Origin: Escherichia coli
GTDB lineage: Bacteria; Pseudomonadota; Gammaproteobacteria; Enterobacterales; Enterobacteriaceae
DNA: 64,000 bases
Assembly (NCBI RefSeq): GCF_045037415.1
Contig: NZ_CP173438.1
Direction: 5' to 3' (one strand)
Shown here piece by piece: positions 12,001 to 15,000 of this stretch (position 1 is the first letter of the stretch; each line of letters begins with the position of its first letter). Position numbers: made by a program.

Positions 12001-15000
12001 TTCTCATTTTTTCCAGCTTCTGGAAGGTCCGGAAGAACAGGTTCAAATGATATATCGGGCCATATGCCAGGATCCACGGCACTATAATATTGTTGAACTG
12101 TTGTGCGATTACGCGCCTGCTCGCCGTTTTGGCAAAGCAGGAATGGAATTATTTGATTTACGCCTGCACGAGCGAGATGACGTTTTACAGGCCGTATTCG
12201 ACAAAGGCACATCAAAATTTCAGCTAACTTATGATGACAGAGCGCTACAATTTTTTCGTACTTTTGTCCTTGCAACTGAACAATCAACCTATTTCGAGAT
12301 TCCTGCTGAAGACTCCTGGCTTTTTATCGCTGACGGATCTGATAAAGAACTTGATTCTTGTACCCTTTCATCAAATATAAACGACCACTTTGCCTTTCAT
12401 CCTATTGTCGACCCTTTATCGCGGCGGATAATCGCTTTTGAAGCCATTGTGCAAAAAAATGAAGACAGCCCGTCAGCTATAGCGGTTGGGCAGCGTAAAG
12501 AAGGGGAAATCTACACAGCGGATCTCAAAAGTAAGGCGCTTGCATTCGCGATGGCACACGCACTTAAGCTCGGTGATAAAATGATTTCAATCAATCTATT
12601 ACCTATGACCCTGGTTAACGAGCCTGACGCAGTCTCTTTTTTACTTGATGAAATAAAGGCCAATGCTCTGGTGCCTGAACAAATCATCGTTGAATTTACT
12701 GAAAGTGAAGTCATATCTCGGTTTGATGAGTTTGCCGAAGCGGTTAAATCGCTAAAGGCTGCCGGTATCAGTGTAGCAATTGATCATTTTGGCGCAGGTT
12801 TTGCTGGTTTGTTACTCCTGTCACGCTTCCAGCCTGACAGAATTAAAATCAGTCAGGAATTGATTACCAACGTTCATAAAAGCGGACCACGGCAGGCAAT
12901 TATTCAGGCGATCATGAAATGCTGTACATCACTTGAAATTCAAGTCTCTGCTATGGGCGTGGCAACACCAGAAGAGTGGATGTGGCTTGAATCTGCAGGA
13001 ATTGAGATGTTTCAGGGAGATCTGTTTTCCAAAGCTAAATTGAATGGTATCCCTTCAGTTGCGTGGCCGGAGAAAAAATAATTTTCAGCACATTATTTCG
13101 CATGATTTCTGGAAATCATCGTGAAAATGAATACGTTATGTTTTAATTTAATCCACATTAAAAATAATATTTCATCCAATTTAGCTGAAATCTTATTTAT
13201 ACTTTGTACAATTTTAGCGTATATTGTACAAAGTATTATTGGGTCGTGTAGAGGCGACGGAGATTTATGACCGCAAGGAGGAATTGTGGCTTATTACAGC
13301 ATTGGTGATGTTGCTGAACGTTGCGGGATTAATCCTGTCACTCTCCGGGCCTGGCAACGCCGCTACGGTTTGTTAAAACCACAACGCAGTGAAGGCGGAC
13401 ACCGACTCTTTGATGAAGAAGACATACAACGCATCGAAGAGATCAAGCGTTGGATAAGTAATGGCGTTCCTGTAGGCAAAGTTAAAGCATTACTGGAAAC
13501 TACCCGCCAGGATACGCAAGATGACTGGAGCCGCCTGCAAGAAGAGATGATGTCAATTCTTCGTATGGCTAATCCAGCCAAACTACGCGCGCGAATTATT
13601 TCACTGGGTCGAGAGTACCCAGTAGATCAATTGATTAATCATGTTTACCTTCCTGTTCGCCAGCGTCTCGTGCTTGATCACAACACCTCCCGCATTATGA
13701 GCAGTATGTTTGACGGCGCATTAATTGAATACGCAGCGGCCTCACTTTTCGAAATGCGCCGTAAGCCCGGTAAAGAGGCCATTCTGATGGCGTGGAATGT
13801 TGAAGAGAGAGCACGATTGTGGCTGGAAGCATGGCGTTTATCATTGTCAGGATGGCACATTTCTGTTCTTGCTGATCCCATTGAATCGCCGCGCCCGGAA
13901 CTGTTCCCAACGCAAACATTGATTGTCTGGACAGGCATGGCACCAACGAGAAGGCAAAACGAACTTTTACAACACTGGGGTGAGCAAGGTTATAAAGTCA
14001 TCTTTCATGCCCCCTAAATTCACCTTTATCCCGCCCCTTAGACAGAATGTTATAATCTGAACCCACAACAGCGTTTGTAGCGGAGCTGGTCCGTTGCAAA
14101 ATGCTCACCGGGAGAATTCAGGTAATCCCCCTTTGACACTTTGTACATATCACAGCCAAAGGACAGACCAGATTGAAGTGGTAAAACCGATCGTGCACAC
14201 TACGCAGTCTCACACCTAACAAGAGGTTATTATCCTGATGGATCAGGTCGTTGTTTTTCAAAAGATGTTTGAGCAAGTGAGAAAAGAGCAAAACTTCTCC
14301 TGGTTTTATTCAGAATTAAAACATCACCGTATTGCACATTACATTTATTATCTGGCTACGGATAACATCAGAATTATTACTCACGATGACACGGTTTTGT
14401 TATTAAGAGGAACCAGGAACCTGTTAAAAGTTAGTACGACCAAGAACCCAGCTAAAATAAAAGAGGCCGCATTGCTTCATATTCGCGGAAAATCTACATT
14501 TCGGGAATACTGTTCAACACTGGCAGGCGCAGGCGTTTTCCGGTGGGTTACTGATGTTAATCATAACAAACGCAGTTACTACGCCATTGATAATACGCTT
14601 TTATATATTGAAGATGTAGAAAATAATAAACCATTAATCTAGCTAAAGTTGGGAGCTTAAGAAATGCTTCATAATTCAGTAAGGCATTAGCATAATGGAA
14701 ATAAAAGTGCAGAGACCATCCCTATGGATGATTAATACTGTCTTTTTATTGCTTCCCATAAATAATCACCAGACCAATACGATCAAATTGATATTTGAAA
14801 TGTGTTCACTTGACTTTTGATACGTTATTTTATAATGGTTAACATATTTATAACAACAACGGGCGTGTTATACGCCCGTTACCGTTTTTAACACATGCAG
14901 AAATTACATATTCTTGATGATCGCGTCACCAAACTCTGAACATTTCAGCAGTTTAGCGCCTTCCATCAGACGTTCGAAGTCATAGGTTACGGTCTTCGCA

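Follow-up and report, generated by a model that had tools for sequence, protein, structure and literature searches.

The ycgX-icd interval

In a 64-kb stretch of Escherichia coli DNA (contig NZ_CP173438.1 of RefSeq assembly GCF_045037415.1; the whole stretch is hereafter the window, and its orientation is the reverse of that of K-12), the genes bluF, bluR and ycgX are followed by a small open reading frame (ORF) orthologous to ymgL, a single predicted terminator hairpin, a displaced 3' fragment of the isocitrate dehydrogenase gene icd, and the right end of a lambdoid prophage carrying sitABCD (Table 1). The gene that draws attention to this interval is one that it does not contain. In K-12 the same place is home to the anti-adaptor gene iraM; its product, which is known from K-12 literature to be induced when PhoPQ senses low Mg2+, blocks the adaptor RssB and so stabilises the stress sigma factor RpoS. 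Here we describe the window interval as the intact, iraM-less allele, of the type found in uropathogenic strain CFT073, of an already published presence/absence polymorphism, and consider how that allele may have arisen.

From the end of ycgX at 14642 to the stop codon of the icd fragment at 14904 the window holds 261 bp, against 1125 bp between ycgX and icdC in K-12, a difference of exactly 864 bp. The original prediction had noticed the short gap, reported that iraM was absent from it and present in K-12, and described it as free of ORFs. Synteny comparison confirms the first two points: the K-12 gap contains ymgL, ymgK and iraM, and a tblastn search with K-12 IraM found no IraM-like ORF in the whole 64 kb of the window (best E = 0.05, across a stop codon). 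The third point does not hold, as the 41-codon ymgL matches PF23691 with 88 bits (cut-off 27; E 3e-25) over profile positions 1-36 of 36. Beside e14 in K-12, the orthologues of ycgX, ymgL, the terminator and the displaced icd 3' fragment follow one another in the same order and orientation as in the window; unlike K-12, the window lacks ymgK, iraM and a second copy of the terminator, its ymgL has 41 rather than 36 codons, and its icd prophage is a sitABCD-carrying lambdoid phage and not e14. The ycgX genes of the window and K-12 are 99.0% identical, and annotations of SK1144 and CFT073 give the name ycgX to the window's orthologue and label the icd fragment a partial isocitrate dehydrogenase; this fragment is the displaced 3' end left behind when the sitABCD prophage integrated. 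In the RefSeq genome of SK1144 an 823-bp stretch from ycgX to the icd fragment is 100% identical to that of the window, and the annotated order (ycgX, ymgL, partial isocitrate dehydrogenase, sitABCD, tail genes) matches.

Table 1. Features of the window around the ycgX-icd interval (window coordinates)
Feature	Position	Strand	Basis or remarks
bluF	11792-13081	+	ORF scan
bluR	13286-14017	+	ORF scan
ycgX (DUF1398), left boundary of the interval	14238-14642	+	ORF; Pfam DUF1398, E 3.8e-47
ymgL orthologue, 41 codons	14695-14820	+	ORF; Pfam PF23691 (YmgL-like); RefSeq 'protein YmgL' in SK1144
Partial, sub-threshold STnc150 resemblance	14752-14890	+	Rfam RF01402; 'TTTTGATA' arm-like sequence plus terminator
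Single icd-terminator repeat copy	14855-14895
Putative crossover interval of the deletion	14855-14867		Comparison of all repeat copies
Predicted two-way Rho-independent terminator hairpin	14858-14880	both	AACGGGCGT-GTTAT-ACGCCCGTT, then ACCGTTTTT on +
icd 3' fragment, icdC-like, last 50 codons and stop	ORF 14904-15056, homology to ~15069	-
Right end of lambdoid prophage at icd	15070-17899		sitBCD and tail genes beyond
Hypothetical protein, 256 aa, between icd fragment and sitA	15528-16298	-	Without Pfam family
sitA	16985-17899	+	Prophage right end

The K-12 cassette and its terminator repeats

The 864 bp of extra DNA in K-12 consist of ymgK, the iraM promoter region and iraM itself, and are bracketed exactly at both ends by imperfect direct repeats of the icd terminator. 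Each repeat is about 43 bp long, begins AAAACAACGGG, passes through the hairpin and finishes TTAACACA; the two K-12 copies lie 864 bp apart, at 18491-18451 and 17627-17587 of the K-12 locus (L001). The copy next to ymgL (copy 1, or hairpin 1) differs from its partner (copy 2) at 7 of 41 positions in K-12 and at about 4 of some 43 in other iraM-positive strains, and the stem-loop of the icd-proximal K-12 copy is identical to the lone hairpin of the window. When the whole window was searched with a stricter 23-nt pattern of the hairpin core, no further copy came to light. K-12 DNA between ycgX and icdC is AT-rich, with a G+C content of 31% compared with 49% for the window.

Variation at the repeats themselves was seen in individual strains. 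In MRSN346647 (locus L007), copies of IS200C at 4725-5183 and 6303-6761 adjoin both terminator repeats and thereby bracket ymgK-iraM, each inserted at ...ctgtgcacaaaaacAACGGG (compare 14850-14860 of the window); IS200C therefore seems to favour the hairpin unit for insertion. Some strains (E28, L020, at 3991; L007 at 6911) have the loop of the icd-proximal hairpin the other way round, reading GTATAACAC for GTGTTATAC, which is a flip between the stem arms.

Three alleles in the E. coli population

Among 5426 complete E. coli genomes, K-12-type iraM is present in 3937 and the uninterrupted junction of the window in 1036, CFT073 among them; a third allele occurs in 19. The remaining ~430 genomes include some in which ycgX was not found beside icd, such as an O157:H7 genome, and both of the IS-disrupted loci that were seen still carry iraM. 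K-12-type iraM occupies a median of one place per genome and stood at the icd locus in 7/7 iraM-positive loci inspected. The expectation that iraM is a variable gene is thus borne out, and its variability has precedent: in the passages of Hryckowian et al. (2014, mBio, PMC4045071) that deal with the gene, iraM is reported in K-12 and absent from CFT073, strains are said to have iraM, iraL, both or neither, CFT073 is described as relying on the paralogue IraL, encoded on another island, and iraM-specific PCR primers are validated on CFT073. The window shows the CFT073-type state of this iraM/iraL polymorphism, and the iraL of that paper is not in the window. The same passages mention neither terminator repeats, nor an 864-bp unit, nor a third allele.

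The likeness to CFT073 extends well beyond the gap. Positions 10135-17134 of the window align with 1450001-1457000 of CFT073 in a single 7000-bp alignment at 99.1% identity, and the order in CFT073 (sitA, a 256-aa hypothetical protein, the icd fragment, a 126-bp ymgL, ycgX, bluR, bluF) is that of the right junction of the sitABCD island at icd in the window. This is the island that we take to be PAI-CFT073-icdA, a name that reportedly goes back to Lloyd et al. in 2007. Unlike the junction, the body of the window's prophage matches CFT073 at 93-99% identity in blocks, so the window comes from a related strain and not from CFT073 itself. The 256-aa ORF is kept in CFT073, K56-43-un and eco-241 (WP_000567449.1); SK1144 is without it, and its sitA lies about 1.2 kb nearer the icd fragment.

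iraM is independent of e14 and of resident prophages

The original prediction tied the variability of iraM to the e14 junction, and PMC4045071 places the gene 'on the e14 prophage' in the passage concerned. Neither placement fits the genomes compared here: K-12 iraM lies 268 bp outside annotated e14, and the gene is also found where e14 is not. An intact icd without prophage accompanies iraM in E28, DEC5D and YZMc3-1, and eco-241 has iraM together with a sitABCD prophage; iraM is missing beside an intact, unoccupied icd in SC477 and beside a prophage in the window, CFT073, A24, EC28 and K56-43. Because all four combinations of iraM and prophage exist, iraM is bound neither to e14 nor to any prophage now resident, and the link that the prediction had sensed is with the icd attachment region used by e14-like elements and not with e14 itself.

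Homology to icd stops at one point (GCGCAGCA[G/T]TA, window ~15060-15070) in the sitABCD prophage and in K-12 e14 alike, and on this evidence the two seem to share a crossover site within icd.

A probable horizontal origin of the cassette

The third (type-3) allele, represented by the loci of EC42405 (L032, 4380-14119) and Z0117EC0005 (L033, 2962-11166), offers a view of what the K-12 cassette may once have been. Here ycgX and a ymgL-like region are followed by hairpin 1, some 18 bp from the 3' end of icd (among them the 12-mer CATATTCTTGAT, correctly spaced from the hairpin) and a ymgK-like region; next come a ymgB/ariR-like gene, a divergent iraM (73% amino-acid identity), trkG, which in K-12 is a Rac-prophage gene, and insertion sequence (IS) remnants; and finally a 455-aa protein of unknown function, an e14-like 'TTTTGATAA' arm, hairpin 2 and an intact icd. 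The hairpins of this allele are 6305 bp apart. Read in this light, the DNA between hairpin 1 and icd would be what is left of at least one element integrated at the 3' end of icd, with hairpin 1 as a displaced older terminator and the K-12 cassette as a strongly reduced version of such an icd island.

Phage genomes supply relatives of the cassette genes as well. Lambdoid and Stx prophages carry IraM homologues, 63-70% identical to the K-12 protein, as single-gene morons that have Q (or stxAB) on one side and nanS with the lysis genes on the other, and DUF1398 homologues of ycgX are found in prophages between the lysis genes and terminase. These IraM-family (PmrD-fold, PF11183) morons resemble the K-12 cassette in the coding region only, with no homology detected outside it, and none of them is present in the window. 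An icd 3' end and a terminator come with the O157 icd prophage and likewise with e14, and the ATAAAAC boundary at which the repeat stops is also where these elements cease to match the host, a likeness to the attL and attR repeats that such elements leave; the third allele adds to this likeness by keeping icd codons beside its outer repeat and an e14-like arm beside its inner one. Unlike attachment repeats, those of the K-12 type cover the terminator only and not 165 bp of icd, and unlike integrated elements, the K-12-type cassette has only ~0.8 kb between its repeats and no integrase remains. Comparison of the iraM 3' flank with the int-att spacer of the O157 icd prophage showed no homology beyond ATAAAACAAC. 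In that spacer, between int and the phage-borne icd terminator of O157:H7 strain Z563 (L008, 3940-4005), stand three tandem GTTTTGGGGAA motifs that are likely arm-type integrase sites; the Z563 genome itself gave no ycgX match at all. Because of its 31% G+C, its direct repeats, its prophage-moron homologues and a third allele with icd codons and an e14-like arm, the cassette fits a horizontal origin, as the original prediction had also proposed for iraM.

Secondary loss or a site never occupied

An interval without iraM can be one that lost it or one that never received it, and the divergence of the third allele bears directly on that choice. Across bluF and bluR all pairs of alleles are similar, at about 96-98.5% identity (bluF: window vs K-12 96.7%, K-12 vs the type-3 locus L033 95.8%; bluR: 98.2% and 98.5%). 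At ycgX the picture changes: the type-3 gene is only 88.6% identical to that of K-12 or the window, against the 99.0% that these two share. From the ycgX stop to hairpin 1 the window and K-12 agree at 93.5% and K-12 and type 3 at 67.1%, and within the cassette, which the window lacks, K-12 and type 3 are 73.9% identical over the ymgK region and 81.5% over iraM. Because type-3 divergence starts at ycgX and continues at a matching level through the cassette, the block from ycgX to iraM appears to have diverged as a whole, well before the haplotypes of the window and of K-12 separated. A linkage of the cassette to ycgX-ymgL that is older than that split would make the window a case of secondary loss, and we consider it probable that the window is such a case and not a never-occupied site. 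Five iraM-less flanks were sampled, and they group in a single tight clade (identity at least 99.0%) beside the greater diversity of the iraM-positive flanks, which fits a single loss event.

The repeats suggest how such a loss could have come about. In the proposed course of events, DNA brought in by an element integrating at the icd 3' end would have been worn down to the K-12-type cassette, and the lineage of the window would then have lost this remnant in a single recombination between the two repeats, leaving one hairpin of the copy-2 type joined to the ymgL flank. The lone hairpin of the window has the flank of copy 1 on its left and is copy-2-like from the loop rightwards, which would place the crossover within the first ~13-15 identical bases. 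For the account as a whole (a CFT073-type iraM-less allele whose missing cassette was the remnant of an element and was lost by recombination between repeats) we put the probability at roughly 0.7.

Several considerations weigh against this account. The direction of change was judged within E. coli: a contig scan with YcgX for outgroup synteny gave only four loci, of 78-81% identity, and these were set aside as prophage paralogues with no bluR, bluF, icd or iraM nearby. BluR served no better as a guide to an outgroup, all Escherichia BluR falling in one 90% cluster whose next relative is that of Citrobacter freundii, where bluF-bluR adjoins fimbrial genes and not icd; and YcgX and IraM homologues of E. 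albertii, considered as orthologues, proved to be paralogues carried by phages. Type 3 might itself have arisen from a separate integration of a related element, or have been imported by recombination, in which case it would be no orthologue of the K-12 cassette. The tree of flanks comprises 13 loci only, in a region where recombination is frequent. Finally, the lone hairpin is wholly copy-2-like, sharing loop and tail with copy 2 and bearing no diagnostic deletion scar, as an ancestral, uninterrupted terminator would.

That last point leads to the opposite polarity, in which the window preserves the ancestral empty site and the cassette was inserted at the icd terminator in a K-12-type ancestor, duplicating the terminator as it did so, while strains of the B2/CFT073 type would never have possessed it. 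It would suit such a history that the iraM-less flanks form a separate clade, sister to all sampled iraM-positive flanks, that B2 strains are usually held to branch early in E. coli, and that the cassette looks foreign, with its 31% G+C, flanking repeats and phage homologues. We nevertheless regard it as unlikely, since type 3 carries a homologous and collinear cassette after the same hairpin 1, since this cassette has diverged from that of K-12 (74-81.5%) to a degree that agrees with the ycgX-ymgL block next to it (67-88.6%), and since the window's ycgX is, by contrast, 99.0% identical to K-12's; the linkage of the cassette to ycgX-ymgL therefore looks much older than the split between the window and K-12 haplotypes. 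Loss, or continued absence, of the cassette through prophage activity at icd, whether by integration or excision of a sitABCD- or e14-like phage or by Int/Xis acting on hairpin 1 as a secondary site, draws on the facts that the repeats coincide with the end of the homology common to icd-targeting phages and host and that the window has a prophage at icd. Yet iraM and prophage occur in every combination (SC477; eco-241; E28, DEC5D and YZMc3-1; the window), the crossover of e14 and the sit phage lies about 165 bp inside icd (window ~15069) and not in the hairpin, and nothing requires a past phage-mediated excision, all of which makes this route very improbable.

Only a slight chance attaches to the suggestion that iraM has moved elsewhere or that the junction is an assembly collapse of the two repeats. 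The repeats are similar enough to mislead a short-read assembler and the DNA examined is 64 kb of a genome; against this, the window has no IraM-like ORF, K-12-type iraM keeps to its one place per genome at this locus, and the junction recurs in complete genomes, CFT073, whose lack of iraM is reported in the passages of PMC4045071 drawn on above, being one of them. That recurrence, in 1036 of 5426 genomes, shows the junction to be no assembly artefact. The divergent paralogue iraL may lie elsewhere, but it is a different gene. A more dynamic idea, to which we give little credence, is that the ~43-bp icd-terminator repeat is a live secondary recombination site that excises or re-captures the iraM cassette, the agents of which could be Int/Xis of resident icd prophages (the sitABCD phage, for example) or simple recombination between repeats. 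The insertion of IS200C beside both copies would further mark the hairpin as a recombination hotspot, and the idea, if true, would turn the PhoPQ-to-RpoS input into a recurrently switchable, phage-linked module.

Terminator, YmgL and a possible small RNA

What remains in the window after the presumed loss is a compact interval of one small gene and one terminator. The hairpin was flagged by a terminator scan (a 10-pair stem with 6 G-C pairs and the tail ACCGTTTTT), and its RNA is predicted to fold with -15.6 kcal/mol on the + strand (z = -3.1) and -19.9 kcal/mol on the - strand (z = -3.3). It is a predicted terminator common to the convergent ycgX-ymgL and icd transcripts. On one strand it would end ycgX-ymgL; on the other it would have served icd until the prophage displaced the 3' end of that gene.

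The extra length of the window's ymgL comes from its 3' end, where the TGA stop of the 36-codon K-12 gene reads TGT, adding five residues. Length follows allele: ymgL has 41 codons in the window and in 6/6 other annotated iraM-less genomes and 36 codons in K-12 and five other iraM-positive loci with an annotated ymgL, while the third allele is without a conserved ymgL ORF. The lack of a conserved ORF in type 3 suggests that the YmgL small protein is under weak constraint. In K-12 both YmgL (36 aa) and YmgK (14 aa) have been detected experimentally as tagged small proteins (PMC6001520).

The stretch at 14752-14890 also recalls STnc150, a Salmonella small RNA (sRNA) that sits in the icdA/STM1239 spacer, downstream of icdA and convergent with it (PMC2515195); the match in the window is likewise convergent with icd. 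With 33 bits (E 2.6e-5) it falls below the gathering score of 60 of the Rfam family, and its alignment is restricted to the 3' ~90 positions and a few at the 5' end. Similar sub-threshold scores, in the range of 31-37 bits for the window and these loci together, were obtained for L016 (2465-2613) and L033 (4226-4425), and K-12 gave no match to the family. The 'TTTTGATA' arm aligns with the left end of e14 and with the type-3 arm. A ~90-nt RNA derived from the 3' end of ycgX-ymgL is possible on these grounds.

Implications

That strains differ in iraM has been in the literature since 2014, and what is added here is anatomical detail and not discovery: a gap that forms a complete unit of small gene and terminator, an 864-bp unit bounded by repeats and probably a remnant of an element that targeted icd, three alleles, and a probable loss independent of e14. 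Such detail serves annotation, and it sets right the claim that e14 carries iraM. For the cell, we infer that the strain of the window would be without the IraM route to RpoS stabilisation at this locus. In strains without iraM the low-Mg2+ input would then be missing or rewired, a difference that may matter for how the stress responses of K-12 and of uropathogenic lineages compare.

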